This document shows, piece after piece, positions 1-39,219 of a stretch of DNA of 39,219 nt (positions are counted from its first letter, which is position 1; every line of letters starts with the position of its first letter). The notes beneath the pieces were generated by a model. The model had not been told where the DNA came from and made no database searches. It saw only the letters and a program-made list of their open reading frames with translations. This stretch comes from a virus (Duplodnaviria; Caudoviricetes). The position numbers and the translations under genes were made by a program. The stretch covers positions 1-39,219 of IMG/VR virus record IMGVR_UViG_3300025128_000119; one strand, written 5' to 3'.

Positions 1-303
1 GTTAATAAGACCGCCCTGATGATGACGGCTGAAAATCCTGTCATCCTCATCCCTGGCTTGTTCGGCATCACGTCTAATCGGAGCATAAAACTTCCGACCT
101 GTCAATCTGGATATAGCAACCCACTCACCCATTTCCCCAATGTCGGGGTCGTGATATTCTGTAGGCATATACACCTCCCTGTCAATTAACATGCTTGTCT
201 GATGTACGTAACCAAGCTGCATGATTGTCTAGCACTTCATCCAACTCATACGTACCCAAATACTGTTCACACGCCCTACGTACTACCTCACTCCTAGTAA
301 TGG
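1..303. repeat. Terminal direct repeat, left copy (assembly overlap of a circular/permuted genome)
   Basis: Matches 38917-39219 at 298/303 positions (differences at 88, 106, 107, 139, 197); cuts through two genes. Confidence 0.95.
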
Positions 304-620: not shown

Positions 621-719
621 CTATACTCCGAAAAACCAGTATATAAAATGCGCTCCAAAGTATATTGTGCCCAGAGTAATCACCATCCAGCCTAGTGTAT
701 CTATCCAGCCGTGTCTCAT
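621..719 (-). CDS. Small single-TM membrane peptide, 32 aa (not in ORF track)
   Basis: MRHGWIDTLGWMVITLGTIYFGAHFIYWFFGV; SD GGAGGTG; ATGA overlap with the upstream stop. Confidence 0.7.
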   Translation of the reverse strand: MRHGWIDTLGWMVITLGTIYFGAHFIYWFFGV

Positions 720-925
720 ACATCCACCTCCGTAGATTTACCAGCCTCAATCGCTGCCTTCAGTATTCCAACACACTTATCTAATTCATTGAAGTCACAT
801 GCTGCCATCAACATTGACCATTCCTTAGCGTCCAGCTCTACTATACTGAAAGCTCCGTGAAACATGGCTGGTGTCCAAAACAGTTCCATTTTGTCATTCA
901 TTACCACAACTCTTGTGTCATCCAT
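716..925 (-). CDS. Hypothetical early protein
   Basis: ORF with AGGAGGTG SD. Confidence 0.75.
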   Translation of the reverse strand: MDDTRVVVMNDKMELFWTPAMFHGAFSIVELDAKEWSMLMAACDFNELDKCVGILKAAIEAGKSTEVDV

Positions 926-936
926 ATCACACCTCC

Positions 937-1164
937 TCAGATGGTTGGAATGATTGGGAAATTGTCATCCGAAGTATGTAAAGCTCCGGCATCATTGCCC
1001 TCATCATCACTCATTGCAATCAAGTACGTACCATCACCGAATATAATCACTGGCGCGTAATTGTATAGCTGTTTCCGATACTCAATTCTGGCTATGATTT
1101 TACCGCTGCACTTCTGGGTTGCTTGTTGTTCCCAGTATGCTATCGTATCTTTTTGGTTACGCAT
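937..1164 (-). CDS. Hypothetical phage protein (SDDEGNDAGAL motif)
   Basis: SD leader AGGAGGTGCAAG-ATG; I recall this motif from phage hypotheticals; function unknown. Confidence 0.75.
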   Translation of the reverse strand: MRNQKDTIAYWEQQATQKCSGKIIARIEYRKQLYNYAPVIIFGDGTYLIAMSDDEGNDAGALHTSDDNFPIIPTI

Positions 1165-1483
1165 CTTGCACCTCCTCTCTGCCGTCTATATGCTTCCCAT
1201 TAGCCCAATACACTTCTTGCCCTGTTACTTCCCACCCCCAACTTTCTCTCAGGTCGTACAGCAACTCGCTTACGGTGGGGCGAGCATTCTCACCCCATAT
1301 GTCATCAGCAATGTCTTTCACTTCGTCAGGTGTCCAAGTCTGCCTTAGTTCGCCATAGTAATGGAGCTTCTTTCTGTTCAACTCCTCTGCCATGTGCGCA
1401 AGGTACATATCATACGGTATAGCTTGTATGTAACGTTCCGTATTCAACCAGTCTATTTCCCAAACCTCTTTGTATTCACTCAT
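1157..1483 (-). CDS. Hypothetical early protein, 108 aa
   Basis: Start reassigned to MSEYKEV after AGGAGGTGCAAG. Confidence 0.75.
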   Translation of the reverse strand: MSEYKEVWEIDWLNTERYIQAIPYDMYLAHMAEELNRKKLHYYGELRQTWTPDEVKDIADDIWGENARPTVSELLYDLRESWGWEVTGQEVYWANGKHIDGREEVQDA

Positions 1484-1622
1484 CTTGCACCTCCTCGTCT
1501 TTGTTTTCAGGTAAGAACAACACACCATCAGCTTGCATTTTTTCCAACACCTCATCAGGTAACGAATGTATATAGTTGCCTAACTTCTGTACGTCTTTGA
1601 CATCTTTGTCTGTGTCACTCAT
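1476..1622 (-). CDS. Small acidic hypothetical protein, 48 aa (not in ORF track)
   Basis: MSDTDKDVKDVQKLGNYIHSLPDEVLEKMQADGVLFLPENKDEEVQDE; SD AAGGAGGTGAAAG-ATG; fills the gap between neighbours. Confidence 0.75.
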   Translation of the reverse strand: MSDTDKDVKDVQKLGNYIHSLPDEVLEKMQADGVLFLPENKDEEVQDE

Positions 1623-1878
1623 CTTTCACCTCCTTGTTTCGTTCAGCTATGTGCATGTCTATGTTGACCTCGATAACAATCCAGTTGATACCTGTTTCGG
1701 CATCAGCCCTGTAGTGAATGCCATGTAGAATGTCCTCTGCCTCAGCACGAGATATGTCAACCCCCATACCTTCGGCTGTGTGAAGCACGTCATCTACGTG
1801 CCACACATGGACAGCAATCGCTGTATCAGGCTTGTAGTGCATCGTCAGATGTTCTATGTGTTGTTTTACTGTTGTCAT
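1615..1878 (-). CDS. Hypothetical phage protein (WxxDDV...GINW motif)
   Basis: SD AGGAGGTG; pattern I recall from small phage early proteins. Confidence 0.75.
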   Translation of the reverse strand: MTTVKQHIEHLTMHYKPDTAIAVHVWHVDDVLHTAEGMGVDISRAEAEDILHGIHYRADAETGINWIVIEVNIDMHIAERNKEVKDE

Positions 1879-1880
1879 CC

Positions 1881-2234
1881 TTACACCTCCTCTAAGTTAT
1901 CCAGGAACTCCGTGATGTCATAGTCGTCACTGAGTTCTTTTACGGTACTGGCATCCCACCCCATTCCATCAACCTCCTCCTCAATGTTCGCTAACCTTCT
2001 CTCTATGTCCTCCAAGTGCTTGTTGATATCAACTTGTAATTGATTTATTATCTTGCTAACCGTAGACTTCTTGACATAACCGAAGTAGTTAGGCATGTCA
2101 TCAAGCTGTGTGTGTGCGTTGCTGATGTCCATGTCATCTACAATGTCGTACGTGATGTTGTCAGCTACGTACTTTATATTCTCGGCTGCGTCCCTAGCTT
2201 CCGTGACTTTTGTTATAAACTCTTTCTTGTTCAT
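1881..2234 (-). CDS. Acidic coiled-coil hypothetical protein
   Basis: SD AAGGAGGTGCAAG-ATG; strongly D/E-rich. Confidence 0.75.
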   Translation of the reverse strand: MNKKEFITKVTEARDAAENIKYVADNITYDIVDDMDISNAHTQLDDMPNYFGYVKKSTVSKIINQLQVDINKHLEDIERRLANIEEEVDGMGWDASTVKELSDDYDITEFLDNLEEV

Positions 2235-2424
2235 CTTGCACCTCCTTGTGCTTTATTCGCTCGAACATGCGACTGTCTTTATGTTTGAAACAATTTGCAA
2301 GTGTACGCCTCCAACCAAAATACTCTAGTCTATCTCTATCACGGTGCATATCATGGCACTCTGACGTTATCCAGTCATCATACATAGCCGTGATAGAGGC
2401 TGTGTGCATTACGTTACTCATCAA
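2194..2424 (-). CDS. Hypothetical protein
   Basis: ATG overlaps the upstream stop; operon packing. Confidence 0.6.
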   Translation of the reverse strand: MMSNVMHTASITAMYDDWITSECHDMHRDRDRLEYFGWRRTLANCFKHKDSRMFERIKHKEVQDEQERVYNKSHGS

Positions 2425-2594
2425 CCGTGTCGGTCTATCAAGTCTTGAATAGATAACTTGCCTTCCTTGAACATGTCCCAGTCGTCATCGCTGACATCCA
2501 TCTGTTTGAAGCAGTCCTCGAAACTGTCCTCTAGCCAGTGCTCTGGTGTGCCATCGGCATATTCAGGGTTCTCATAAAATACTGTAGTTGTCAT
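2421..2594 (-). CDS. Small acidic hypothetical protein, 57 aa
   Basis: Start reassigned to MTTTVFY after GGGAGG; ATGA overlap. Confidence 0.7.
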   Translation of the reverse strand: MTTTVFYENPEYADGTPEHWLEDSFEDCFKQMDVSDDDWDMFKEGKLSIQDLIDRHG

Positions 2595-2818
2595 TGTGTT
2601 TGCGCCTCCCTGCGCAGTACGATATAGTGCCATGTGAATATGGCTATTGTTACTGGTATCACCGTCAACAAGAACACAGTGTCATCCGACATACGTGTTC
2701 CACAGCCTGATGCCTCATACAAAGTCTTGCCTAGCTTGTAAGACATGTGACCAAGCCAGTCATTACAGAAGTCTCCATCCGTTACGCTTAGGTACAGCCA
2801 GTTAGCTATTGCTTTCAT
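2591..2818 (-). CDS. Hypothetical membrane protein (one C-terminal TM)
   Basis: SD AAGGAGG; hydrophobic VFLLTVIPVTIAIFTWHYIVL. Confidence 0.7.
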   Translation of the reverse strand: MKAIANWLYLSVTDGDFCNDWLGHMSYKLGKTLYEASGCGTRMSDDTVFLLTVIPVTIAIFTWHYIVLRREAQTQ

Positions 2819-2851
2819 GTTGCCTCCTTCTAACCTTAGGGTTAGACTATG

Positions 2852-3244
2852 TTACCAACGTTCGTTAGGGTCTAGTGCATATGCGTATCGCTTAATCAAA
2901 TTCAAGTGTGCAACACTCTCACCTGCTACGTCCATCTGAGCGTTTAGCATTGCTGTGTGTAACAGTCGTAGCTTACGTGTGCCTCCAGGATAATCCCAGA
3001 AGTGACGCAGGTAGTGTCTATACTCATAAGCCCAGAAGTAGAAGATACCTAGATAGTTATACGTGCCTCGATATTTTTTATCCCAGTCAATCAAGACCTG
3101 ATTAACTTTCCAGTACATGTTGGCATTGACAAGGTAAAATATTTTGTCGTTGTTATCAGCTACCCAGCACAGCAACCTGTGTAAATGCTTCATCCGAACT
3201 TCGTTGTTTTCTGCCCAGCACAGCAACCTGTGTACATACCTCAT
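2852..3244 (-). CDS. Hypothetical protein with duplicated HRLLCW segment
   Basis: SD AAGGAGGTG; 21-bp perfect repeat at 3163-3183 and 3214-3234. Confidence 0.7.
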   Translation of the reverse strand: MRYVHRLLCWAENNEVRMKHLHRLLCWVADNNDKIFYLVNANMYWKVNQVLIDWDKKYRGTYNYLGIFYFWAYEYRHYLRHFWDYPGGTRKLRLLHTAMLNAQMDVAGESVAHLNLIKRYAYALDPNERW

Positions 3245-3504
3245 ACCCACCTCCTTGCGTCAATAACGCCTTGCTCATTTGCTCCAGCTTTTATCATCAG
3301 TCTACCTATAACTTCCAGTCGGACATCCCTACTCATTTTAAGAGGCATTTTAGCAAGCATCTCGTCCCACTTCACAAACAAGCCCATGTACTTGTCAAAG
3401 TGATTTTTATGCGTGCCCAAGCTATGTGCTTTTGCAACTTCAGGTATCATCTCATCGACAAGCGCATCCACTACTCCGTTTATGGCTTCAGATTTATTCA
3501 TCAT
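3241..3504 (-). CDS. Hypothetical protein
   Basis: SD AAGGAGGTG. Confidence 0.75.
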   Translation of the reverse strand: MMNKSEAINGVVDALVDEMIPEVAKAHSLGTHKNHFDKYMGLFVKWDEMLAKMPLKMSRDVRLEVIGRLMIKAGANEQGVIDARRWV

Positions 3505-3521
3505 GTCACCTCCTTAGGTGT

Positions 3522-3752
3522 TTATTCCTCGTGATTGTTGGCATCTAGTATTGTATCTAATCCGTTAGGTGTAACGTCTACAGGCATGATACCTATACCT
3601 GCTAGGTGTCGGATTTCGTTTTCAGTAATCGTCTTACGCTCACCTCTACCTATCAACTGCACTAGTACATATGCTCGGGGACATCGTGGATACCAGTGAT
3701 ATTGGTTGTACATACCACTACGCCGCTCAATGTTGTACGTGTAATTGTCCAT
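3522..3752 (-). CDS. Hypothetical protein, 76 aa
   Basis: Start reassigned to MDNYTY after AAGGAGGTGCAAGC. Confidence 0.7.
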   Translation of the reverse strand: MDNYTYNIERRSGMYNQYHWYPRCPRAYVLVQLIGRGERKTITENEIRHLAGIGIMPVDVTPNGLDTILDANNHEE

Positions 3753-3769
3753 GCTTGCACCTCCTTGTG

Positions 3770-4381
3770 CTAGTAATTTTTCACTGTCTCGACTATACAT
3801 ACTTCTGTGTTGGCGACATCGTAACACATCAGGCAGTTAATACACTTGCCAAAACAATTCTCACGCGGGTCATCTTGGGTGATAGTGTTGAATACCTTCT
3901 GAAATCCTGCAGGTGGTACTTCCATCACGTTATCCTTGATAGGATTTGAGTAGATGAGTATGAAATTGTCAGGGCGTGTGTACTCAGCGTTGTACCTGTT
4001 GATAATATCTTTGCGTTTTGTCCAGATTGAGCAAGTAACAGCAGGATTTTTACGTGCTGTATCATGGAAGTTCAGTTGATGGTCAAAGTTTATCAGTTCA
4101 CCATGTGCATGAAATCGCACTCGTAAGTGATGCAATCTCGGCAAGTCATCCCAGTGCATCCGCTCAGTCAGTAGTTCAGTGTTATGCTCAAACGCTGGTA
4201 CACAAGACTTGCGAAACCCTTCCAGCATTTGCCAACTGTAACAATCCCTGCATATCACGTTATCAGGCTTGCGCTGCATCGACTGACAAAACGCATTGCT
4301 CAGTGTGTTAGTGTTTATGGCTGGTATATGCTCCAGCTTACCTGTCATCGTGCTTATGTGTATTACGCCTGGAGTAGTCAT
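3770..4381 (-). CDS. Phage gp88-like protein (Cys-rich, possibly radical-SAM-like)
   Basis: C...CxxCY, RFHAHGE, WTK, PDNFILIYS and C-terminal CxxxCxxCxxC follow the gp88 family pattern; TAATG overlap suggests start MTTPG. Confidence 0.6.
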   Translation of the reverse strand: MTTPGVIHISTMTGKLEHIPAINTNTLSNAFCQSMQRKPDNVICRDCYSWQMLEGFRKSCVPAFEHNTELLTERMHWDDLPRLHHLRVRFHAHGELINFDHQLNFHDTARKNPAVTCSIWTKRKDIINRYNAEYTRPDNFILIYSNPIKDNVMEVPPAGFQKVFNTITQDDPRENCFGKCINCLMCYDVANTEVCIVETVKNY

Positions 4382-4862: not shown

Positions 4863-5012
4863 TTATCGGATACGATACTTGTCTGATTGCGTATAGTCAT
4901 ACTGACCTGTACGTATAGCGAGTTTGACATACTGCCTATTTTTGCGACTACTTGCACGTTTACTGCGTGCAGGTGCTGAATGTGTAACTGTGTTTTTGTA
5001 GGTCTTACTCAT
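4863..5012 (-). CDS. Small basic protein, 49 aa, apparently first gene of this minus-strand block (not in ORF track)
   Basis: MSKTYKNTVTHSAPARSKRASSRKNRQYVKLAIRTGQYDYTQSDKYRIR; SD GGAGG; contains a 17-bp motif copy at 4886-4902. Confidence 0.7.
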   Translation of the reverse strand: MSKTYKNTVTHSAPARSKRASSRKNRQYVKLAIRTGQYDYTQSDKYRIR

Positions 5013-5050
5013 GTAATAGTCCCTCCGTCAGTGGTTACAGTGTGGGTGTC

Positions 5051-5135
5051 TCAATGCACCCATGTATACACACTAACACTCAATAGCCAGTCGCTATTAT
5101 GGGGTGGTGCTAGTGTGCATCATATGGAGTATTGA
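5051..5135. other. Long imperfect hairpin (~33 bp of stems)
   Basis: TCAATGC/GTATTGA, CCATGT/ATATGG, ATACACACTAACAC/GTGCTAGTGTGCAT and AATAGC/GCTATT nested. Confidence 0.75.
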
Positions 5136-5150
5136 AATTTTATTATTGTG

Positions 5151-5735
5151 GAAGTCGTCACCGATAAGTTAAGGGTAAGTGCCCAACGTGTGCAGAATAA
5201 GACGCTCGTTTGATGACTTCAAGTGTGGCAATGATATAAAACAAGTCTATAGTTCTGACTATGATATTTTAGATTTTATATCTTATCACTTGCGCTATGT
5301 GTTGAGTAGATTGCCAGACTAGCCGCAGCTAATCAAAAGCGAATTCGCAAGAGGTTACAAAGTCCGGTTATTTTATACTTGTTCCTAGCTCGAAGGCTTG
5401 CAAGAATGAATTTCCACATGTACGGCTGCTTCAGGGTTGCCCACGCTTCATTCTTTACCAACGTTATCACACTAGTTACGAGTTACTAACAAGCAACCAA
5501 ATTATAAAAACTTTGGGCGGGTCATCTATTGCAACGTTGACCGCTAGTGCATCTATTCAATTGTATAAAATTTGCTTCCAATTCTGTGGCGGAATGACCG
5601 CCAACCTGCGCATACCTTACCACATATTCAGAAATTATGTAACCAATTTGGAAGTTTTAAGGTTACAGGCAAGAACTAGGAACAAATTGGTATTAGTAAT
5701 TAGCGCAAAAGTAGTGCATGGTAAAGTTTGGGCAA
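5151..5735 (+). ncRNA. Candidate large structured non-coding RNA (~590 nt)
   Basis: No credible ORF; several 6-10 bp local helices plus nested long-range pairs 5290-5297/5701-5708 and 5379-5388/5676-5685; G-U pairs favour the plus strand. Confidence 0.5.
5614..5643 (-). promoter_or_regulatory. Possible leftward early promoter
   Basis: Minus strand GTTACA, 18 nt, TAAGGT preceded by TGTGG (extended -10). Confidence 0.35.
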
Positions 5736-5877
5736 GCCTAAATTAGACCGCCAAAAACAACCCACACATACGCTTAATAATGGCAAGAAAACAAAGCAAC
5801 CAAGCCCACTATAAGAGAACAAGAAAACACCAAGCCAGTAGAACAAATGAGCTAAATCCTGGTATACACGTATACAG

Positions 5878-6207
5878 GTAGCACTATACGCAATCGGAGC
5901 GGATGCAATAAGATTGCAAGAAAACAAGTATCATGATATCGGATTGCAATCGGAGGGTTTTCCTTTAATACACGTGACACGTCAGGCGACTATGTACACC
6001 TATACGCAACGTACACAATCGGACACGCAGGCTATACGCAACGTCAGAAGCGTAGGCATATACGCAACGGATTGCGTATAGGCAGACGAAAACGTGGGAC
6101 TATACGCAATCGACTGCATGGCTATACGCAATTTCTGGCGGGGTGATTGCGCATAGGCATACGGAATTGTAGGACTATACGCAATGGCGAGTACGCCTAT
6201 ACGCAAT
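5878..6207. repeat. Array of 10 copies of 17-bp motif GTAnGnCTATACGCAAY (8 forward, 2 reverse)
   Basis: 11-nt cores start at 5884, 6000, 6032, 6058, 6100, 6122, 6175, 6197 (forward) and 6071, 6146 (reverse); 63-bp block repeated with 75-bp period (6070-6132 vs 6145-6207, 50/63 identical, ungapped). Confidence 0.9.
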
Positions 6208-6414
6208 GAGCGCGCGCGTGTCGTGTAGGTTCTGTGGTCTAGCACGTACTCTCTTATGATTGCCGATGGCCTCCGCTCTCTCCTGACCGCCGCACCCCCC
6301 CACCACTTGCGATTGTTCATTACCTGCTTCCTACATAGGGGCGCAACAAAATTTTCACAGTTTTCCTAACCACTGATGTTTATTGTAATGTGGTACATTC
6401 CTTACCTGATTTCA

Positions 6415-6423
6415 TGGTATACT
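6415..6423 (+). promoter_or_regulatory. Extended -10 promoter for terS, probably leaderless
   Basis: TGgTATACT, 7 nt, ATG 6431; no SD. Confidence 0.6.
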
Positions 6424-6430
6424 GCAACCG

Positions 6431-6844
6431 ATGGCAGTCCACAAGAACAGCCTCGCTAACCTAAAACGGGGTGGAAACAACGAAATCATCAAAAAGCATC
6501 AGTTTACTGCTGGTCCTGATGGCACCGCTGTACAAGCCGCTAACTCACGCTGGGAGCGTGCCAGAGAAGCGGCAGCAGAAGGCTTAGTGGATGCGTTAGA
6601 CAAGCGGAAAACAGGTGCTACCGTAGAGCAAGCCTGGAAACAGATAGTCAAAACGCAAGCCGAGCTTGCGGCAGACCCTGAGAAACGGGGTAGTACGCAG
6701 GCCGCACGCCTAGTAGGACAGGCGGCAGACCTGTTACCACGGGCTAACGCCCAGCCTGAAGCTAGTGGTCCTGCTACCGTTATCCAGATTGATGCCCGTG
6801 ATGCTCAGATACTACTTGCCCAGATAAATGACAAAAAAGAGTAG
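6431..6844 (+). CDS. terS: Terminase small subunit
   Basis: Directly upstream of and overlapping terL; N-terminal NSLANLK..G..F motif typical of small terminases. Confidence 0.7.
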   Translation: MAVHKNSLANLKRGGNNEIIKKHQFTAGPDGTAVQAANSRWERAREAAAEGLVDALDKRKTGATVEQAWKQIVKTQAELAADPEKRGSTQAARLVGQAADLLPRANAQPEASGPATVIQIDARDAQILLAQINDKKE

Positions 6845-19100: not shown

Positions 19101-21029
19101 TATGACGCTTTCAAAGCTCTAGAGTTTGATTATTTTACAGCCGTTATGAACAATCCTGATGTCGGTGGTGCTATGGCTGAACAGTACCAAGTGGAGTTAT
19201 ATACCCAAGAAAAATGGTATCGGGAACAACAACGGTTGTATAGTGCCGCAGGGGGTATTACTAAAGCTGATATTGGTCTAGGCGATTCTGATGAATATAT
19301 GAGTTTAGAAGACTTAGAGATTGCACACAAAGTATTGCTAAAAGAACGCCAGTTTGACGCAGCTGACGAGCTACTTAAAAATGCTCCTATATTTGCCGAA
19401 TACATAAAGAACAAAGACAGATGGGTTAGGTACGGTCAAGATGTAGAGATGAACAAAATCATTGAATCGTTACGAATGCCCGAAATTACTTTAGCAGGTG
19501 ATGGACCTCCAGAAACAGGAGCAGAACAACGCCAAAGGAAAGCTGTAGAAAAAGAAAACAGAAGACTATCATACCAAGACGTAAAAGCTAATGATAATCA
19601 ATTAGCAATAGTTGACGCATTGGTAGCAAAAGATGTTGCTGACCAAACATGGTATGAGAGAACTCAAGAACAATTTGTAGACGAATTGTTTGAACCATTC
19701 ATTCAACAGGAAGCTCAAAACAGTCAGGTAAAATGGGAACAATTACGAGAAGAACCTGTTTTATACAAATTCCCTGTTAGCAACAAAGGCATAGATGGCC
19801 TCAGAGGCTATGTTGCTCAGAACGATGCTGCGAGCTTGAGGGAAGCTATGATGAACGAAGCTCTTAGAATAGGAGAGTTAGCTGACGATGCTTTAGCGTG
19901 GCGTGTAATGGGTACCATTTTAGAAATGCACCCTGACGATATAGATGCAGCTGCAGACCGCTATCCCGAACTCAAAGATATGCGAGAAATCTTTTCGGTT
20001 GTGTATGGTCAGCAGTATCCTACCCGTGAAGTGTATATAAACGCTATGGGTATGGATGGAAAAGTTTCAGCAGATGGTAAGGCTTCGGTAAGTCGGCATA
20101 GTGTCTGGGGCGTGACCGCCGAAGACGTATTCAAAGCAGAGGATTTGATGGGGTCATTAGTGACGGATGAAGACGACAATTATGTTAGTACAGCTAAGGT
20201 GCATGAATTTATTAGAAGATGGACTAATGAAAATATTGAAGAAAACATTAATCTAAAGTATCAAGAATATAATATGTTGTGGACCTCACATCAGTATGCA
20301 GAGGCTTTGCAAATGTTAGAAGATGAACCTAATATTCAACAATTCGAACTATTTTCAAAAGCAACATTTGATGCTTTCAATGCCGCTAAAAACGTATCGG
20401 GTAGTGATAAGTGGTTGAAGTATCTTAAACAGTTAAAAGAAGGTGAAAGACCAGGTCTTGCAGTAGGTGCAGATGGAACAGTTGCAAGTACAGGGGCAGA
20501 AGGAGTGTTAGCAGCTATAAAAGAATTTGGTTTAGATGCTTTACCAGGATTACGAAAGGTTAAAAAAGAAGCAACCAGTAAACCGTCTAGTAGACCACGA
20601 ACTACTAAAGGCAATAAAGAGAAACTTGCTTTATGGGACTATGAGGTTTTCAAACAACCCCAACGTAGACAACAAAGCAGAGGTAGACGACAACAACAGG
20701 AATTACCACCGCCAGACTTATCGCCGTGGACTAACCTCATGGACCAATGGAAGACAGACAAGAATCCACTATTAGTTATACTAATGGACTTCTTTGACCT
20801 GTCAGCATATGCACGTCAAGCGCATTTGCAACGTAATCCTAACTTGGCCAGATGGTTATCTAGTATTAAACCTGAAGATTTAGCTAAGATTGAACAGGCT
20901 TATTACCTTTGGGCACAACAAACAGGTAGAATATCGCCGAGACAAGAACGTAGGATACAAAAGTCTCGACCCAACCTAGCTACAACTTTACGGGTATATA
21001 AACCCCGTGGAACCAGAGCTGGTTTATAA
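13164..21029 (+). CDS. Giant internal virion / DNA ejection protein, 2621 aa
   Basis: Size, helical character and position between portal and scaffold; no tape measure elsewhere. Confidence 0.65.
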   Translation: MASRRFEKPDKPAVADTRYKDISPFEDIPLEPPSGNRDVPFKPKVIEEPKFELQPQASYRPPVRPRVRFEQWLDQQDSKPSALDIPMRPDIQNEYIDHPVPGMRERFTSKRGSTDRGEYLDNLAEGTRAASAYGLDYFLNEPASVQEARDWTRQNTQSLQDAYMKRWEEEDATFQEQLQEYRDKPYIVSEVEENPDRYELVARQTINGEKWDLVLDRQATPQTENKYADRYTKEMLAQIEQAEKFKEQETLRAFGLQNEDANVSAGKSFVSPYSYTGQFRFVPSFEEVEPDWYDKTKRSGGVWSKTQVKKWADWSARKGWELPWLESLTGISGTSIMPGYAELGVSTGAAEMLKENVYLADGTLYTVDRSPSPASSQASPGGTYVRKVVQEDGEVRPTLVRSGAKPKPVTATLYEALQDIYPEESNDFYVEAIAETSVIPSGSASHKLEAIIKVHDLGMSWTEAIDGDPNILQNELAPLMDNWSVSTHDAFMSAVKQNPKTNWYYNKRIQELAQVGITGEAADRDVAITIRQSGLPGSQDVSNKFAHDIFFDPSTWIAGLIGKGLKTAKGAADAAKRLKYFGPSIVKGRGYVNPRILSNIYDPIKGEFTEVGLQQVTKANSNQTVRLADDIAETITDDITETVRQNQTVYQRGGGIGGLNPIALTASGAKGEVIERAYDAFTAILSDVHKVQGTVNPITGQVNKTSIKEAGMALATLAEPAPLVDDFVSRLGREAGEKAFNTAKDDWTLRTIQAANLLEPYGVARSIAGREASALLYQMVRNPATGRVDPRILAQKLLRQGKDVDDITEALVQHYDEAAETLLTGKNGKPNPIREKYQSFKEYINQVDDAGNYINDPADFGQFERGTRGSLERHRQRVAARKVVDENKEKVFDYNMGDSFIKMGLHELAAGWQGTKNIVNTGLWMLYGSLNPAYSARNYYNNMLTAMVDGKYSLKPLSAIEEFYNHAPRPYAAERGIGGTIKADIGGQQGDALGQSLADRMLDNRFDLFSGTWTPTIPKWVPGVGGKKIRIGANAIEQSTGARVAYQGQSDFLKHILVDTKTGVVPLPDDIVLTLEAAGRGDLVVNLYQDLYSGVTRNGDTMMFNVDGALNNLYDAMQTPQGWQVDLRSLQRHITDDDIILFNKIDDAGQLDIAVKKILHKADTPQEAAEQLRLYAQELDAKIAAADKRIPAGLEIEEPTSETNQFLTRVEVEKNKGTQQIDIALGIDDIERMDLSQSLNAIRVGESELAENVARKQQHIHNIMNNARANADVPQSVVDDLQERLNAANAKNDAARQAAAAEHVDLLKDTWKSHDNIAKIPNIKPEQISRRRERLWRGETGYHVQQAIRRQDLQAEMVANLEEVINYAMRTDADNLLQPAIKYSDTPLFSPVDPTSYKYTLDPLITRLDEASRTVEGVVPAKTVQLTADQIDDLSLWREQQRARMTQNLSQSQQVGKNNRDFALLRYTDRRNADTWLSNVFPFHYWYTRTAYNWTQRAFMRPAAAQAYVRFRMVRDQQHAAMPEYLRQALSTDDLGIRTDYPLYFNHEGMFNPLHQFIGSNFEDRDKEQARILGTNIGRVAQDIGNVGPAMWAPWQWGIAASQLDYTVREGQKPKPGEVRVTEQNRDTASAWFGTLSNQSRAIRAITAYAHAISNIGQPGGINLDPLVALGHSIRTPGDLNPGYTRSLTKYDENRLVEEYAYMLENPQEFAHLYPNRSFTRDEWIQEVQNSAIQGPVTKLDYQAQQDVSLSIDAYKHGDQDYNYLYDAALQRSIEKNVPRALFSFGLGWMYQGTSQEKERVTDYWKRHQYLSGLYETDLDQEEISELYRQFQVNDPLFDIVPNLRNGQTERNDHLVRSAISAAPNGVDILVDTIGDDTAISRFFETGSTQYLTAEQRDELHAAALRQKLLLQQPPIEKRKAYLQSQKDAEQIRDEIKATHGEDVWNFRNELLQDAATSDNPTELINGELDQLQRQDPELYDAFKALEFDYFTAVMNNPDVGGAMAEQYQVELYTQEKWYREQQRLYSAAGGITKADIGLGDSDEYMSLEDLEIAHKVLLKERQFDAADELLKNAPIFAEYIKNKDRWVRYGQDVEMNKIIESLRMPEITLAGDGPPETGAEQRQRKAVEKENRRLSYQDVKANDNQLAIVDALVAKDVADQTWYERTQEQFVDELFEPFIQQEAQNSQVKWEQLREEPVLYKFPVSNKGIDGLRGYVAQNDAASLREAMMNEALRIGELADDALAWRVMGTILEMHPDDIDAAADRYPELKDMREIFSVVYGQQYPTREVYINAMGMDGKVSADGKASVSRHSVWGVTAEDVFKAEDLMGSLVTDEDDNYVSTAKVHEFIRRWTNENIEENINLKYQEYNMLWTSHQYAEALQMLEDEPNIQQFELFSKATFDAFNAAKNVSGSDKWLKYLKQLKEGERPGLAVGADGTVASTGAEGVLAAIKEFGLDALPGLRKVKKEATSKPSSRPRTTKGNKEKLALWDYEVFKQPQRRQQSRGRRQQQELPPPDLSPWTNLMDQWKTDKNPLLVILMDFFDLSAYARQAHLQRNPNLARWLSSIKPEDLAKIEQAYYLWAQQTGRISPRQERRIQKSRPNLATTLRVYKPRGTRAGL

Positions 21030-21098
21030 TTATGATTGACCCGTCTATGTTATAATAGGCGGCGTAGTAAACAATATAATACATAAGGAGAGTGTACC

Positions 21099-22987: not shown

Positions 22988-23209
22988 ATGTCGGTGATGC
23001 AAACAGAACCAGTGTTTTTATGTCGCCGATGTGGACGACCCGTTGTGGTCAAGCACTTATCTACATCTGAGTCCGACCCAGACGGAAAACAATTGCATGA
23101 CATGATGGCCAATCTACATAAGATAGCCTTATGTGATTTTCATCAAGCTCAACGTAATTGGTTTGCCGCTAATGACCGAATGGCCGAATGGGAAGCAGGT
23201 GCCACATGA
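22988..23209 (+). CDS. Small zinc-finger protein
   Basis: CRRCG...CDFH; SD GGAGGT. Confidence 0.7.
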   Translation: MSVMQTEPVFLCRRCGRPVVVKHLSTSESDPDGKQLHDMMANLHKIALCDFHQAQRNWFAANDRMAEWEAGAT

Positions 23210-34029: not shown

Positions 34030-34357
34030 TCGCAATACCCTAAAAGAAAAGCTAATAGAAATACGATTTGACTGTGACTGGTGTGACCGCCCGTTAGTGG
34101 GAGAAGGTGACATGCACGAATGGCTTATCAAGCGTTCTGCGCTACCAAAGAATAAGCGTATCTTTGATGAACGCAACTGTGCTATCTTACATCACTCCTG
34201 TCACATGGCTCACGGCCAGACCAGAGCAATGCAGGATAAGCTCGCTCCGATATTCGTTCAGCGTTACGGTAAGGACAAGATGTTAGATTTCATAGATGGG
34301 TTGGGGATGAAAGCACCACAACAATTTGTACACATAATAGAAGCTGTGGTATACTAG
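33998..34357 (+). CDS. HNH/His-Me finger-like nuclease (NinG/Ref-like)
   Basis: CDWC...DMHE...N...LHHSCH..H; start uncertain (33944, 33998 or 34010). Confidence 0.6.
   Translation: MAQRLSVTITNRNTLKEKLIEIRFDCDWCDRPLVGEGDMHEWLIKRSALPKNKRIFDERNCAILHHSCHMAHGQTRAMQDKLAPIFVQRYGKDKMLDFIDGLGMKAPQQFVHIIEAVVY
34326..34355 (+). promoter_or_regulatory. Promoter for putative sRNA
   Basis: TTGTAC(A) at 34326-34332 and TGgTATACT at 34347-34355; no credible plus-strand ORF follows. Confidence 0.6.
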
Positions 34358-34361
34358 AATA

Positions 34362-34482
34362 ACTTCACGAAACGGGTGTGACCTCCTTTGAGCAGGAAGC
34401 CCAATTCCTTCTTGCTTTATTTACAACAATACCCGTCTCCTCATAAACACCAGGTGGTCCATGCCGCCTGGTGTTCCTTTTT
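34362..34482 (+). ncRNA. Putative sRNA with unpaired anti-SD (ACCUCCUUU)
   Basis: Stems 34372-34379/34429-34436 and 34391-34399/34408-34416 (G-U on plus) flank ACCTCCTTT at 34381-34389; ends in a terminator. Confidence 0.55.
34446..34482 (+). terminator. Intrinsic terminator between convergent units
   Basis: AACACCAGGTGG-TCCATG-CCGCCTGGTGTT 12-bp stem then CCTTTTT; may also act on the minus strand. Confidence 0.8.
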
Positions 34483-34484
34483 AA

Positions 34485-34676
34485 TTACTGCAACTCGTCA
34501 CGCCAAACAATATTACGCTTGGCTAGACCACGACTAATAGCATACAGTCCACTAGCTACGGCTGAGGCTATCGCTACTTGGTCTGCGCTAAGTAGGTTCA
34601 AACTTGCCATTATTGCTGTGGCGACTACTGATAGTGCTGTTATCCAAAACTCTGTTGTCTTGTATCCGTGTTTCAT
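34485..34676 (-). CDS. Holin-like small two-TM protein
   Basis: KHGYKTTEFW...LYAISRGLAK signature, two hydrophobic segments; SD AAGGAGG. Confidence 0.7.
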   Translation of the reverse strand: MKHGYKTTEFWITALSVVATAIMASLNLLSADQVAIASAVASGLYAISRGLAKRNIVWRDELQ

Positions 34677-34965
34677 CTAGTCCTCCTTCAAGAATAGATT
34701 CAAATATGTCTGGTTGTTCAATGAAAAACTTTCCGATGGCGGCCAGTAACGCAACAGCCTCTCGTTCTCCTAGCCCTTTGATGGTACGCTTCAACCACCG
34801 TGCCTCCGATTTTATTATCTGCGCATCGTCACCTCCTAGTTTACGTAACGCATTTTCAGCTATATCAAGTCGTAACTTGGATGCAGACTGGACAGTCTCA
34901 TTGCCGTACTGGCGCAACAGCCTGTTACGAAGTTCATACTCTATCGGACTGTATTTAGTTCCCAT
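34588..34965 (-). CDS. Hypothetical protein
   Basis: SD AGAGGA; 3' end overlaps the holin-like gene by 89 nt. Confidence 0.65.
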   Translation of the reverse strand: MGTKYSPIEYELRNRLLRQYGNETVQSASKLRLDIAENALRKLGGDDAQIIKSEARWLKRTIKGLGEREAVALLAAIGKFFIEQPDIFESILEGGLDETRIQDNRVLDNSTISSRHSNNGKFEPT

Positions 34966-35413
34966 GTTTCCTCTTTAAGCGTGAGCGTTCTTGGGCTGCT
35001 TGTCTACGTACCCTCGCAGCAGTCTTTTTACGGGACGGTTTCTCACAGTAACTACCTGTACGCCAACGTAACTCACGCTCTGCCTGTCTAATGCCTTTGG
35101 CTAATAGTTTACGTTCCTCTGATGTCATGGGGTATAAGTGTACCTTCTTTTTGGAGCGTTGGGTTTTTCTAATAACAAGACCTGTACCTGTCTTGTAGTA
35201 TACAAACGCATCACCAATAAAAAATCCAGGCGCACACCTAGCTCCTTGATGTACGATAACCTCTTTCTTGCTGAACTGTGCCCCCACGTTGAAGGTATTG
35301 TCGGTGTTGCCATGCACGTTACCGACAAACACAATGCCTGCCGTGGCTCTTACGCCATCGCCATGACTACGATAAGGCACTACACTATCCCACGGATTGC
35401 CCCCTTTTAGCAT
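34955..35413 (-). CDS. Hypothetical protein with very basic C-terminus (start uncertain: 35413, 35380 or 35128)
   Basis: 152-codon open frame; C-terminal ELRWR..YCEKPS..RR weakly bS21-like. Confidence 0.6.
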   Translation of the reverse strand: MLKGGNPWDSVVPYRSHGDGVRATAGIVFVGNVHGNTDNTFNVGAQFSKKEVIVHQGARCAPGFFIGDAFVYYKTGTGLVIRKTQRSKKKVHLYPMTSEERKLLAKGIRQAERELRWRTGSYCEKPSRKKTAARVRRQAAQERSRLKRKHGN

Positions 35414-35436
35414 GTATGCCTATACGCAATTGTCAA
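35409..35436 (-). promoter_or_regulatory. Promoter with embedded 17-bp array motif (operator-like)
   Basis: Minus strand TTGACA (35436-35431) directly followed by ATTGCGTATAGGCATAC (35430-35414); candidate -10 CATGCT at 16-nt spacing. Confidence 0.6.
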
Positions 35437-35440
35437 CTTC

Positions 35441-35824
35441 TTAAGGTTTCGTTGGTTCATCTCTCAGAGCGCATACTAATGACCACGCCATGTCGGCACG
35501 GTTCTTATAGAGTTGGTCAAGCCATTCAATCGCATCACCATCGGCTATGTGTTTACTGGTGATGTGTAAGAAGCTCCACCCTAACAGACAGCCTGCATTC
35601 GTTTTCTCGCACAGTGAAGTAAAGCCCTTGCCTCGCACATGCCTACCTCCTGTCCAGATACCTCCCTCTATTTCAACCCCTATCTTATAGTCAGGCCATG
35701 CAAAATCAAGTCGCCAACGCCTACCCATCTCCTCTTTGGCAAACATATACTCTCGCTCCCATTTAGGAAACTCGAATAACTTTAACTGAAACTCAAACTC
35801 TTGTTCTAGTTCTGACTTAGCCAT
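35441..35824 (-). CDS. PD-(D/E)XK endonuclease (DUF559-like)
   Basis: SELE..F, REY.F, RRWRLDFAWP, VEIEGG.W..GRH, LGW motifs. Confidence 0.85.
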   Translation of the reverse strand: MAKSELEQEFEFQLKLFEFPKWEREYMFAKEEMGRRWRLDFAWPDYKIGVEIEGGIWTGGRHVRGKGFTSLCEKTNAGCLLGWSFLHITSKHIADGDAIEWLDQLYKNRADMAWSLVCALRDEPTKP

Positions 35825-35826
35825 TG

Positions 35827-36372
35827 TTACCTCATTAGGTGCATCACTAAATCTTCTAAGACACTCAACGCAATCGATAATGCGTCACGGTTTTCCTCGG
35901 TTAGTTCTACAGCACGGTGGGTTGCTCGGTCCAGGTTGCGCTTGGCTGCGTTGATGTCCTTCATAAACCTCTGCCAATCTTGAGTGGTGTCCTCATGCTC
36001 GCCCCTAACAAAAGATGATAATGTTTCTGCTGATGTTCCTTCCTCTAGTGCTGTACGTAACTGTTCAGCAGCTTCTCTGGGATGGAACTCGAACTTCTGC
36101 CATAAATCAAACATGGTATAGAAGTGTTTGGGGCTGGCTATCCTACCTCTAACCTTCGGGTTATACCTGCGGAATAATCTATAAGCCATGCCTGCTTTAG
36201 CCAGCCTGCCTACGTGCATGATACTAACACCGAGGGCTTGAGCTAACTTAATAGTCTCGCCCTCGGCATAGTTACCAACAACTCTTGATGCAGCCAGGCA
36301 CGTCACCCAACGGTGACGGTCACTTAGCTGATAGTTAGATACTGCTCGGTGATAGTTTTGCTCTAGACTCAT
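35827..36372 (-). CDS. Hypothetical protein with possible HTH
   Basis: TIKLAQALGVSIMHVGRL; start assumed at MSLEQ. Confidence 0.6.
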   Translation of the reverse strand: MSLEQNYHRAVSNYQLSDRHRWVTCLAASRVVGNYAEGETIKLAQALGVSIMHVGRLAKAGMAYRLFRRYNPKVRGRIASPKHFYTMFDLWQKFEFHPREAAEQLRTALEEGTSAETLSSFVRGEHEDTTQDWQRFMKDINAAKRNLDRATHRAVELTEENRDALSIALSVLEDLVMHLMR

Positions 36373-36700
36373 CTGTACAATATTTACCCCACAACGGGTC
36401 ACGTTTTGCTTCTACATCCCATAACAGTGTGTCTATTTGCCTAATAGACATACCCTGCTGGATGTAGTAAGGTTGGTTTTCCATAGTAAGTGCCTTGTCA
36501 TAGTCCACAGTCTCGACCATGTGTCGTAAATCTTTTATCTTGGGAAACCAATCCTCTGTGGTTATCCATTTATTTATAGCACGTTCCATCGTAGCATCGT
36601 CCACATCCTTGAACATACTGGCATACAACTTCCATGTACCAGCAGGAATGTTCTGATTAGGATAAGCAAATGCTAGTGGTTCAAATACTTTAGTCTGCAT
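36335..36700 (-). CDS. Helicase loader/inhibitor-like protein (G39P-like)
   Basis: LAFAYP...W......KD......AI......WFPKIKDL pattern directly after the initiator. Confidence 0.65.
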   Translation of the reverse strand: MQTKVFEPLAFAYPNQNIPAGTWKLYASMFKDVDDATMERAINKWITTEDWFPKIKDLRHMVETVDYDKALTMENQPYYIQQGMSIRQIDTLLWDVEAKRDPLWGKYCTDESRAKLSPSSI

Positions 36701-37406
36701 TAAAGGCCTCCTGTAATGTGTCTATACTAGTCTTACCTTTACCTTTTATCAAAGGCATCCTACCTTGCACAACCCAATCTGTCAACCACTTTATTGACAT
36801 AGGATTGTACCCACGTTCCAACCATTCCTGGTGATATGGAAGTAAATCATCCTCAGACTTATCTCCTATAACCTCAATGATGGTAGTGTATAACTCCTTT
36901 TTAGGATAGCGGTTAGTAATCTTTCTATATATTTGTATAGCCTTGTGTTGACTATCAGGATGACGAACTGCTTTTGTTCGTCCTAAGTTAACCTTGTTAT
37001 CAGTTAACTTAACTACTGATGGTTTGGGTGACATAGCTATGTCACCCCTAAAAACCCCAGATGTGGGGGGTATACTGTTTAGAGATGACATATTGTCACC
37101 CCTAACTTTCATAGGAGTTTCGTATTCCACCATGATTGCCTTGAGCTTTACCAAGTCTATACGGTACTCCCTGGGTCTATGTCTACTAGCTTTATGGACC
37201 ATCTCGATGTATCCATCTTTACGCAGGTCATTCATAATTCTTTGTACCTGTCGCTTAGACAGACATACCTTATGTGCTACACGTTCCATTGATGGGAAAA
37301 CTCGACCCCCCATATCATTGGCGTGGTCTGCCAGAGCTAACATGATTAGTTTCTGAGTTGGTTTTAGTGGTGTGTCAAACACCATGCTCATTATCTTTAT
37401 ACTCAT
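36690..37406 (-). CDS. Phage replication initiator (HTH_36-type N-terminus)
   Basis: KLIMLALADHAND.G...FPS...A....LS.RQVQR....L...GYI; internal GDxxS repeats. Confidence 0.85.
   Translation of the reverse strand: MSIKIMSMVFDTPLKPTQKLIMLALADHANDMGGRVFPSMERVAHKVCLSKRQVQRIMNDLRKDGYIEMVHKASRHRPREYRIDLVKLKAIMVEYETPMKVRGDNMSSLNSIPPTSGVFRGDIAMSPKPSVVKLTDNKVNLGRTKAVRHPDSQHKAIQIYRKITNRYPKKELYTTIIEVIGDKSEDDLLPYHQEWLERGYNPMSIKWLTDWVVQGRMPLIKGKGKTSIDTLQEAFNAD
37021..37105. repeat. Putative replication origin repeats inside the initiator gene
   Basis: Perfect 22-bp palindrome GGGTGACATAGCTATGTCACCC (37026-37047); TGTCACCCCTAA at 37040 and 37094; AT-rich flank 36985-37020. Confidence 0.65.
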
Positions 37407-37978
37407 TGCACCACCACCACATCTACGATGTACGAGCCTGCTGGACTAAAACGGTCACGTATGACCTCACCGTTTTCGACCCAGACTGGGTCACGCTGTA
37501 AGATGTCAAGCCTCACACTACCGTCATACTCTAGGGTATAAACAGCCCCACCTCTATCAATACACAGATAAGTATTCTTGAGCGCAGGTATATAGAACTT
37601 CGTACCAAGTGGATACTCACGAGGGCACGCTACTGTAGCATATTTCTCATGCCACCACGACCAGTGATGCCATCGCTTACCATCAGTCAGCCAGGATGTA
37701 CATTGCCCATCTACCACGTTATCTGGGTGACAGTTCGGACCCAGATTAGGCGGCCAATAATAACTCAGCCTTGCCCTTAGCTGTGGTTCTGTGGTAGGTT
37801 GTACTGTTGGTGTAGGTGGTACTGGTGTATTGGTTTCTATAGCTACGGCAGGAGCAACCAAAACTGCTGGTTGCTCCACTTCGTATCCTCTAAAAGCGTT
37901 CCAGATAACAACGCCAGTTACAAACCCTGCTACCATTGACATCGCAATCATAACTACGATAACTTCACGTCTAGTCAT
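37403..37978 (-). CDS. Membrane-anchored 3D/DPBB-like cell-wall-acting protein
   Basis: N-terminal TM, P/T linker, SYY..VACP...PLGT.......DRGGAV....LD motif; SD AAGGAGGT. Confidence 0.6.
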   Translation of the reverse strand: MTRREVIVVMIAMSMVAGFVTGVVIWNAFRGYEVEQPAVLVAPAVAIETNTPVPPTPTVQPTTEPQLRARLSYYWPPNLGPNCHPDNVVDGQCTSWLTDGKRWHHWSWWHEKYATVACPREYPLGTKFYIPALKNTYLCIDRGGAVYTLEYDGSVRLDILQRDPVWVENGEVIRDRFSPAGSYIVDVVVVQ

Positions 37979-37995
37979 AACAACCTCCTTAGACA

Positions 37996-38496
37996 TTATG
38001 TTTTAATTAAAGCTGTCACCTTCTTTGGTTTGTTATCTACACGAAGGTACGTACAAGTATATCCAGTCAAGTCATAGGTCTGGGTTGGGTCAAGCTGGTC
38101 TAAGTCTAAGATGTGAGCAATAGTCTCTGGCCAAACCGTAACTCCAAACTTAGTGAACGGTCCACCCTGTACCTTATAGTACGTCTTACCATCATTGACG
38201 CTACACACAAGTTTCTCAGCTGCAAACGTTTCAGTCTCAGCCGTGTCAGCTACTACCTGGGCTGGGGTCGTTGGTGGTGCGCCATTAGGTGCAGTGAATG
38301 TAGGTGGTGCGCCATTAGTTGCTGTGGTCTTACCAGTTGGTTCAATCCCATTCTCTAATAGGATACCTGCAAACATCCTAAAGCGTTCCAGCAAATGCGC
38401 CTCGCTCTCATCTCTAAGGGTGAACATTACTTCCCACCCTACACTAGTCTTGCCCTTGAAATTGATGCTACTCGGTGCTTCTGTATGCTGTGTCAT
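37996..38496 (-). CDS. Hypothetical protein (possibly ssDNA-binding/recombination)
   Basis: SD GAGGAGGT; NGAPPT duplicated (16-bp repeat at 38273 and 38303); beta-rich C-terminus. Confidence 0.6.
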   Translation of the reverse strand: MTQHTEAPSSINFKGKTSVGWEVMFTLRDESEAHLLERFRMFAGILLENGIEPTGKTTATNGAPPTFTAPNGAPPTTPAQVVADTAETETFAAEKLVCSVNDGKTYYKVQGGPFTKFGVTVWPETIAHILDLDQLDPTQTYDLTGYTCTYLRVDNKPKKVTALIKT

Positions 38497-38671
38497 AATT
38501 GACCTCCTCCCCTGTTCGGGTATCTAATAGCATAACTCTACTCATTTCGCCACACTCACGACAACGTGAGTACGCTGTTACTGAAGGTGGGTATTGAACT
38601 GAGCTATAATCATCGACCTGACCTTCACAACAGGCCGACAGCTCCTCTACGCTTCTGACTAACTCTTTCAC
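38468..38671 (-). CDS. Small zinc-ribbon protein
   Basis: SACC...CRECG; GTG start after AAAGGAGGT. Confidence 0.6.
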   Translation of the reverse strand: MKELVRSVEELSACCEGQVDDYSSVQYPPSVTAYSRCRECGEMSRVMLLDTRTGEEVNYDTAYRSTE

Positions 38672-38889
38672 GCTACCTCCTTTGCTGGGGGGTGAGGCTC
38701 TATACTTAGGCATACACTCAGAGTTGACCTAACCCCACCCCTTCCACAAAATGTGTACAGCAGTAAAAAGTCTTATGCTCATTGCCTGATGGCAACAAGA
38801 GAGTGAACACTCACTCTTTTGTGCGGATATACGTTTGTATCTAGAGGGACTATGCTCTTTGTGCATATCCGCACATAACAGCAAGTGTG

Positions 38890-39084
38890 CTATTGTTGGT
38901 CGGGTCTAATAACCCAGTTAATAAGACCGCCCTGATGATGACGGCTGAAAATCCTGTCATCCTCATCCCTGGCTTGTTCGGCATCACGTCTAATCGGAGC
39001 ATAGAACTTCCGACCTGTCAACTTGGATATAGCAACCCACTCACCCATTTCCCCCATGTCGGGGTCGTGATATTCTGTAGGCAT
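38890..39084 (-). CDS. Hypothetical protein, 64 aa (partial variant copy at 1-168)
   Basis: MPTEYHDP start after GGGAGGTG. Confidence 0.7.
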   Translation of the reverse strand: MPTEYHDPDMGEMGEWVAISKLTGRKFYAPIRRDAEQARDEDDRIFSRHHQGGLINWVIRPDQQ

Positions 39085-39219
39085 ATACACCTCCCTGTCA
39101 ATTAACATGCTTCTCTGATGTACGTAACCAAGCTGCATGATTGTCTAGCACTTCATCCAACTCATACGTACCCAAATACTGTTCACACGCCCTACGTACT
39201 ACCTCACTCCTAGTAATGG
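38917..39219. repeat. Terminal direct repeat, right copy
   Basis: Matches 1-303 with 5 mismatches. Confidence 0.95.

Follow-up and report, generated by a model that had tools for sequence, protein, structure and literature searches.

A candidate phage small RNA with an unpaired anti-Shine-Dalgarno seed at the late-operon end

Background

The C-rich unpaired seeds of RNAIII and RsaE act on G-rich Shine-Dalgarno (SD) sequences (PMC9217828), and an anti-SD blocking of ribosome binding has been proposed for the csRNAs (PMC3091779). In the phages P1 and P7, the c4 antisense RNA pairs near the ribosome-binding site (RBS) of the ant mRNA, blocks its translation and serves immunity; known phage regulatory RNAs have single targets according to the cited part of the same review (PMC12197685). 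Cluster K mycobacteriophages have start-associated sequences, which would represent the target side of such a pairing; whether a protein or an RNA binds them was left undecided in that paper (PMC3203893). Here we describe a unit that, judging from sequence comparison, is likely a trans-acting anti-RBS RNA directed against the early genes of its own phage. A search of the open-access literature returned no paper on such an RNA.

Results

The window, by which we mean the whole stretch of DNA analysed (39,219 nucleotides), is a complete 39-kb virus record from marine metagenomes. Among the public runs listed with the phage none was of RNA, which weighs neither for nor against a transcript. Its plus strand (6431-34357) encodes terminase, SU10-type capsid, lysozyme and phosphoesterase, and its minus strand carries the replication block and small early genes. 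A replication-initiator gene and a CopG-like repressor are present, and the 52 ORFs scanned gave no polymerase or integrase match. The host is likely a member of the Chloroflexota, because the iron-sulfur cluster assembly gene (ErpA/IscA, 3867-4235) borne by a related phage, L039, has its best named matches in Anaerolineales and because one member of the capsid cluster carries the label Dehalococcoidia. No provirus of the phage was found in prokaryote genomes. The ends of the window (1-300 and 38917-39216) form a 300-nt terminal repeat (98% identity), which probably reflects an overlap in the assembly together with differences between strains. Compared with L017, L040 and L055, in which the middle-gene block lies behind the RNA and on its strand, the block of the window (34485-39219 plus 1-612) is inverted. 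The sequence TGCGTATAG occurs in 10 copies, nine of them within or beside the long non-coding early-late stretch (4888-6205), partly as inverted pairs, and the tenth (35420) inside the promoter region of a 152-aa gene; these repeats may be operator or origin iterons.

Behind the last gene of the late strand lies a unit (34345-34482, plus strand) composed of an extended -10 promoter, an ORF-free 120-nt fold and a terminator (Table 1). The extended -10 element (TGTGG-TATACT, 34345-55) is preceded by two -35 candidates, TTGTAC (34326-31) and TGTACA (4/6). A single promoter match of this kind is uninformative alone, 14 being found against 14.3 expected by chance. The fold reaches -48.4 kcal/mol (z -7.5), and none of 200 shuffles was as stable. 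The outer stem P1 surrounds the seed, the inner hairpin P2 and an A/C-rich strand unable to pair with the seed. The seed has the same letters as what we take to be the 16S tail. The terminator is the most stable hairpin with a U-tract in the window (-21.8). No covariance model of Rfam 15 matched the window at E<=1. A sequence-only reading of the same DNA had described the promoter (TTGTAC...TGgTATACT), about 120 nt without a credible ORF, two stems leaving the seed largely unpaired and a strong terminator. The promoter coordinates hold and the other elements are confirmed, the two stems proving to be nested; the conserved unpaired UCCUCA and the invariant 5' ACUUCAC had been absent from it.

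Table 1. Positions of the RNA unit, its surroundings, its predicted targets and the unrelated units of other lineages
Feature	Position or loci	Strand	Evidence and remarks
Promoter, weak -35 and extended -10 (TG-G-TATACT)	34326..34355	+	overlaps stop codon of upstream gene; TGTGGTAYAMT in 5/5 homologues; duplicated behind terminator in L017
Predicted small RNA, about 120 nt	34362..34482	+	5' end deduced from promoter
5' segment ACUUCAC, unpaired, invariant, contains anti-GUG	34362..34368	+	homologue alignment and fold
Outer stem P1 (34372-79 with 34429-36)	34372..34436	+	8/8 pairs present in all five sequences; two double changes and a single one
Anti-SD seed GACCUCCUUU, unpaired, internal loop	34380..34389	+	CCUCC unpaired probability 1.0
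Inner hairpin P2	34390..34417	+	different, shorter hairpin instead in L016/L017/L040/L055
Second anti-SD-like motif UCCUCA	34438..34443	+	unpaired probability 0.7-0.99; in 5/5 homologues
Intrinsic terminator	34446..34482	+	hairpin 34446-75, 13 pairs; also likely end of late read-through transcripts
Upstream gene, last on late strand, HNH-like, start uncertain	34031..34357	+	weak PHROG match, E 0.03
Convergent 63-aa membrane-peptide gene, outside RNA unit	34485..34676	-	gone beside RNA in L016/L017/L040/L055; one homologue with weak holin matches, E 0.04
Late promoter TGGTATACT, same 9 bases as RNA promoter	6415..6433	+	precedes leaderless first late gene
Early gene block, repeated AGGAGGUG leaders	716..3770	-	7-8-nt matches; repeat families D3, D5
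Predicted target, leader of 166-aa gene	38500..38508	-	9/9 to seed; -11.9, rank 1
Predicted target, leader of 67-aa gene (GUG at 38671)	38675..38684	-	10/10 to seed; -10.2 kcal/mol, rank 2
Type B unit	L023, L026, L027, L032 and copies		two CCUCC loops
Type C unit	L021, L028		two CCUCC loops
Type D unit	L029, L044		one CCUCC loop and a second unpaired segment

Homologues were sought by protein- and pattern-based scans, and five distinct sequences constitute what we call family A (the window, L019, L016, L017 and L040). A model of this family (R1) run over 59 sources returned the 11 known copies, six reverse-strand terminator echoes and no more distant homologue, and none of 50,697 annotated phage records matched the unit. 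Covariation around an invariant seed, named beforehand as a check, was found: GACCUCCU is invariant across the homologue alignment, both double changes in P1 are compensatory and the single one is a G-C/G-U change. The covariation score of P1 was reached in 5/500 shuffles, a control that relatedness can inflate, and P1 has only two haplogroups, so that each compensatory change represents one event. P2 is swapped among the homologues, and the seed, the 5' ACUUCAC and the UCCUCA are retained. The four changes that separate L019/L034 from the window lie in the linker or are A-U/G-U swaps, as fits a plus-strand RNA; the identity between the window and L034 is 116/120 in the RNA and 297/327 in the upstream gene. 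In Logan contigs, 11 and 24 differences are listed, none of them in 34345-34482, a comparison weakened by coding flanks and low depth.

In L016, L017, L040 and L055 the downstream block is reversed and the RNA unit is kept. L017 has an extra hairpin terminator between the upstream gene and the duplicated promoter, hence the unit stands alone. The minus-strand frame behind the seed has four codons in the window, as the sequence-only reading had it; this length does not extend to L016/L040, where the frame has 36 codons (spacer 13-15 nt). No SD-led ORF is common to the five homologues. The compensation in P1, the invariant seed, the retention of the unit without the peptide gene and the lack of a shared SD-led frame together point to a plus-strand RNA gene. 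For want of a common SD-led frame we rejected both a relic SD of a minus-strand gene and a peptide gene within the unit, and we rejected a cis-acting (type I) antitoxin of the convergent peptide because four relatives keep the unit without the peptide gene. The broader view that the segment is only a 3' UTR with a terminator, its motif being such a relic or an antitoxin for the membrane peptide, can appeal to the convergent hydrophobic gene in the window and to the chance occurrence of CCTCCTT in 0.4-3.6% of shuffles per unit. We give it very little credence, as it is opposed by the persistence of the unit where the 63-aa gene is missing and the block inverted, by a promoter that is conserved and, in L017, insulated, and by the absence of a conserved minus-strand ORF among the homologues.

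We curated the gene starts of the window by hand and obtained 53 leaders, 29 early/middle and 24 late. GGAGGU occurs in 14/29 early/middle versus 1/24 late leaders (p 5e-4), and GGAGG in 20/29 versus 1/24 (p 8e-7). The late leader at 22988, with GGAGGUC, is the exception among late genes, which use AGGAG-type, coupled or leaderless starts. When the 53 start regions were ranked by accessibility-corrected duplex energies, our own approximation of the suggested IntaRNA ranking, the top 13 were all early/middle. Since the seed presumably equals the 16S tail, the counts and the ranking say no more than that the SDs of early genes are strong. These counts agree with the earlier claims of GGAGGU in about 14 early leaders and of structural leaders mostly of other types, 22988 excepted; the claimed seed matches of 10 nt and 9 nt (Table 1) and of 8 nt at 1628, 2240, 3249, 3508, 3759 and 37983 were likewise all recovered. 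The majority of leader matches measure just 7-8 nt, with -6 to -9 kcal/mol.

Among relatives, the match of the best-ranked leader (38500) is lost in L017/L040/L055, and the 67-aa gene leader AAAGGAGGU is retained in L034, L017, L040 and L055. An atlas search with the 166-aa protein matched unnamed viral clusters only. The 5' ACUUCAC has a 10-nt match to the 67-aa leader in L040/L055, inconsistent in the window, L034 and L017, and we rejected co-variation of the two as proof on account of this inconsistency. In 4/4 relatives the 67-aa gene has a GUG-AA that the invariant UUCAC fits, with an 11-nt loop-out needed and flanks free of co-variation. An energy matrix of 8 RNAs by 9 genomes revealed no own-genome advantage. 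For nine CCUCC-type RNAs the longest matches to own and to foreign leaders were not significantly different (p 0.09-0.77), the own mean lying above the pool mean in eight. The window seed is generic, without significant preference for its own leaders, and small early genes may carry strong SDs for other reasons.

To place the unit among relatives, lineages were grouped by BLAST identity and gene order. Eight related lineages comprise five with one clear unit near the late-operon end, one ambiguous case and two with none in partial sequence. The five units belong to five unrelated scaffolds, four of which display CCUCC. In relatives that lack the family-A RNA, types B-D are likewise units of promoter, fold and terminator. 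Types B and C were first met in a CCTCC-directed search and type D by reading a sequence stretch; a motif-blind scan recovered all three, plus two ORF-free units without CCUCC. Types A-D exhibit no BLAST cross-match, the family-A model does not match types B-D, and Rfam models gave no match to types A-E in 10 loci. The four further scaffolds fold with z -6.0 to -8.2. The second unpaired segment of type D complements its own GGAGAACAC leader.

A later scan, serving as an out-of-sample test, added two lineages, L087 and G012. In L087 a perfect extended -10 comes after the late terminator and leads into a 95-nt fold, itself followed by a terminator; CCUCC is absent. Its unpaired UCUCGUCUCC (probability 0.95) is the complement of a GGAGACG tag carried by 5/13 non-structural leaders of that phage (matches of 11, 10, 10, 8 and 7 nt), and the predicted targets include an Erf-like gene. 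Matches of at least 8 nt occur in 4/13 own versus 0/85 foreign leaders (p<5e-5), the tagged leaders being repeats and not independent. The L087 RNA is the positional counterpart of the window RNA, not its homologue. Its seed matches a private leader tag, which supports an aim at the phage's own early leaders and argues that selection follows these leaders.

A shut-off of host mRNAs with strong SDs, which late genes would escape by avoiding GGAGG, could explain both the generic anti-SD seed of four scaffolds and that avoidance, but the L087 seed matches a phage-private tag and not the 16S tail; we regard this explanation as quite unlikely. It is improbable that the RNA is a decoy for a protein or another RNA, such as a defence protein or a G-rich host sRNA, instead of an mRNA repressor: the invariant 5' segment has no consistent partner and C-rich seeds also pair with G-rich sRNAs, as in RsaE-RsaI (PMC9217828), yet the anti-leader letters are the sole common feature of five unrelated folds, and in L087 these letters follow the leader.

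Several other loci were inspected. The G012 unit, with a loop containing CUCCUUUU, was set aside as ambiguous, having a weak U tail, a place directly before a tmRNA-like piece and no own-leader preference. Two distant phages have weaker look-alikes: in G004 a 3' hairpin that displays UCCUCCU in its loop precedes a terminator, and 7/9 leftward early leaders use GGAGG; G005 has a promoter-hairpin-terminator unit with a loop not matching its own early leaders. Relaxed-pattern matches in L075 and L076 were discarded as chance matches in coding DNA. Among loci with a 34-38% identical phosphoesterase, no CCUCC unit was seen (none in 15/21 scanned). In runs X6, X8 and X11 a divergent contig joins homologues of the HNH-like and membrane-peptide genes with 408 unlike letters between them, so that a further, unread version of the slot appears to exist there.

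The slot also holds a second class of promoter-led RNA (L022:1235-1335, L026:2890-2965, L021:3875-4000, L032:810-925, L042:1525-1625), a short hairpin with a loop able to pair with 10-11 nt lying 60-90 nt further downstream. The pairing partners change together between L022, L026 and L021, and the class may form an H-type pseudoknot or alternative stems; no Rfam match was obtained for L022, L021 and L072. A short unit of promoter and terminator that lacks CCUCC is present at L017:1359-1440 and L028:3636-3710, and these two lineages have its terminator in common. In G012 (L121:9157-9226, minus strand) we found a 70-nt tmRNA tRNA-like domain, in which 13 nt replace the 316-nt mRNA-like part. It scores 49.4 bits against RF00023, above the gathering score, has a perfect sigma-70 promoter upstream and was not called by ARAGORN; it may serve to decoy SmpB or alanyl-tRNA synthetase. 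The same integrase-bearing lineage has arrays of 17-nt palindromes (L084:8070-8200 and L121:9750-9900), possible operators or iterons.

Discussion

We think it likely that the unit is transcribed as a small RNA that would mask GGAGGU leaders on early and middle genes of the phage itself and spare most late genes. Host sigma-70-type polymerase would transcribe the predicted RNA, its open ACCUCCUUU loop would pair with the GGAGGU leaders of early and middle mRNAs, and the pairing would block 30S binding and ribosome entry, repressing early translation. Late genes would escape through their AGGAG-type, coupled or leaderless starts, and host mRNAs with the same SD may be affected as a side effect. 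By accumulating with genome copy number and, in the window, with late read-through to the same terminator, the RNA could put a brake on early translation at the onset of late gene expression. The sequence-only reading had proposed an RNA that silences early and spares late genes. The stand-alone RNA gene, the invariant seed, the leader asymmetry and the aim of the L087 RNA uphold this proposal; the generic character of the window seed does not.

Timing is the least supported step; we favour a late brake, with a constitutive role in c4-like silencing or exclusion as second choice. The RNA has a host-type promoter, in which an extended -10 is combined with a -35 match of 3-5/6. Each late promoter (6395-6423 and 21027-21056) has a pair of -10-like boxes, spaced 23-24 nt, and lacks a -35. 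This double pattern is retained before the scaffold gene in 8 relatives, and the second box is absent from the RNA promoter. With the same pairing and the opposite timing, an RNA made immediately or constantly would silence early lytic genes during a carrier or dormant state, or would exclude incoming related phages in the way that c4 RNA does for P1/P7. A host-type promoter whose -35 match rises to 5/6 in L040 and L017, a generic seed that binds leaders of relatives equally well, the replication-initiator gene and CopG-like repressor of a window without an integrase match, and the lack of a clear unit in the two integrase-bearing lineages would all suit such timing. Against it, late promoters likewise combine an extended -10 with the lack of a perfect -35, middle-operon promoters having TTGACA (6/6), and the unit is located at the late-operon end. 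We judge the opposite timing unlikely and retain the late brake.

The late brake may be one case of a tag-and-mask switch, in which an early leader tag, its avoidance by late genes and a slot behind the late operon, repeatedly refilled with unrelated anti-tag RNA folds, would suffice to shut off early expression with no regulator protein; we put this generalisation forward only tentatively. If true, the same logic could account for orphan start-associated sequences in other phages. An RNA masking a whole class of its own leaders would provide a protein-free ordering of expression in a phage without its own RNA polymerase, and five unrelated folds in one slot, one of them apparently following a private leader tag, would amount to a natural swap experiment.

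The unit would work much as the cuckoo, csRNA, RsaE and c4 RNAs do, but it lacks what defines them. Like c4, it would be a phage RNA whose loop-exposed sequences pair near the RBS of its own mRNA; the target of c4 is the defined ant mRNA, whereas here it would be a leader motif common to many early genes (PMC12197685). A search for c4 features gave no Rfam match and no antirepressor match among the 52 ORFs. An unpaired anti-SD is shared with the csRNAs as described in the cited text, but these are host-encoded and CiaR-driven, whereas the window RNA is phage-encoded with its seed in an internal loop and its anti-GUG 13-15 nt from the anti-SD, a stem arm lying between (PMC3091779). A CiaR-dependent promoter is not expected, because the host is likely a member of the Chloroflexota. 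The cuckoo/alpha-r14 family likewise holds an anti-SD motif while its stems are free to vary, and types B-D show the motif in hairpin loops; by the cited definition, however, that family requires 2-4 adjacent hairpins each with CCUCCUCCC, and the window has one ACCUCCUUU in an internal loop (PMC4615179). RsaE/RoxS and RNAIII also direct C-rich unpaired seeds, two per RNA, against G-rich SDs, but their motif is UCCC(C), they are host metabolic and virulence regulators in the account cited, and they have no sequence match to the unit (PMC9217828). The window unit contains no UCCCC, the seed duplicated in RsaE/RoxS. The start-associated sequences of cluster K resemble the early leaders in being a repeated extended SD restricted to non-structural genes; they differ in that the cited portion of the paper gives the target side only, with no partner RNA described (PMC3203893). 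An anti-leader RNA would be a testable answer to the purpose of such sequences.
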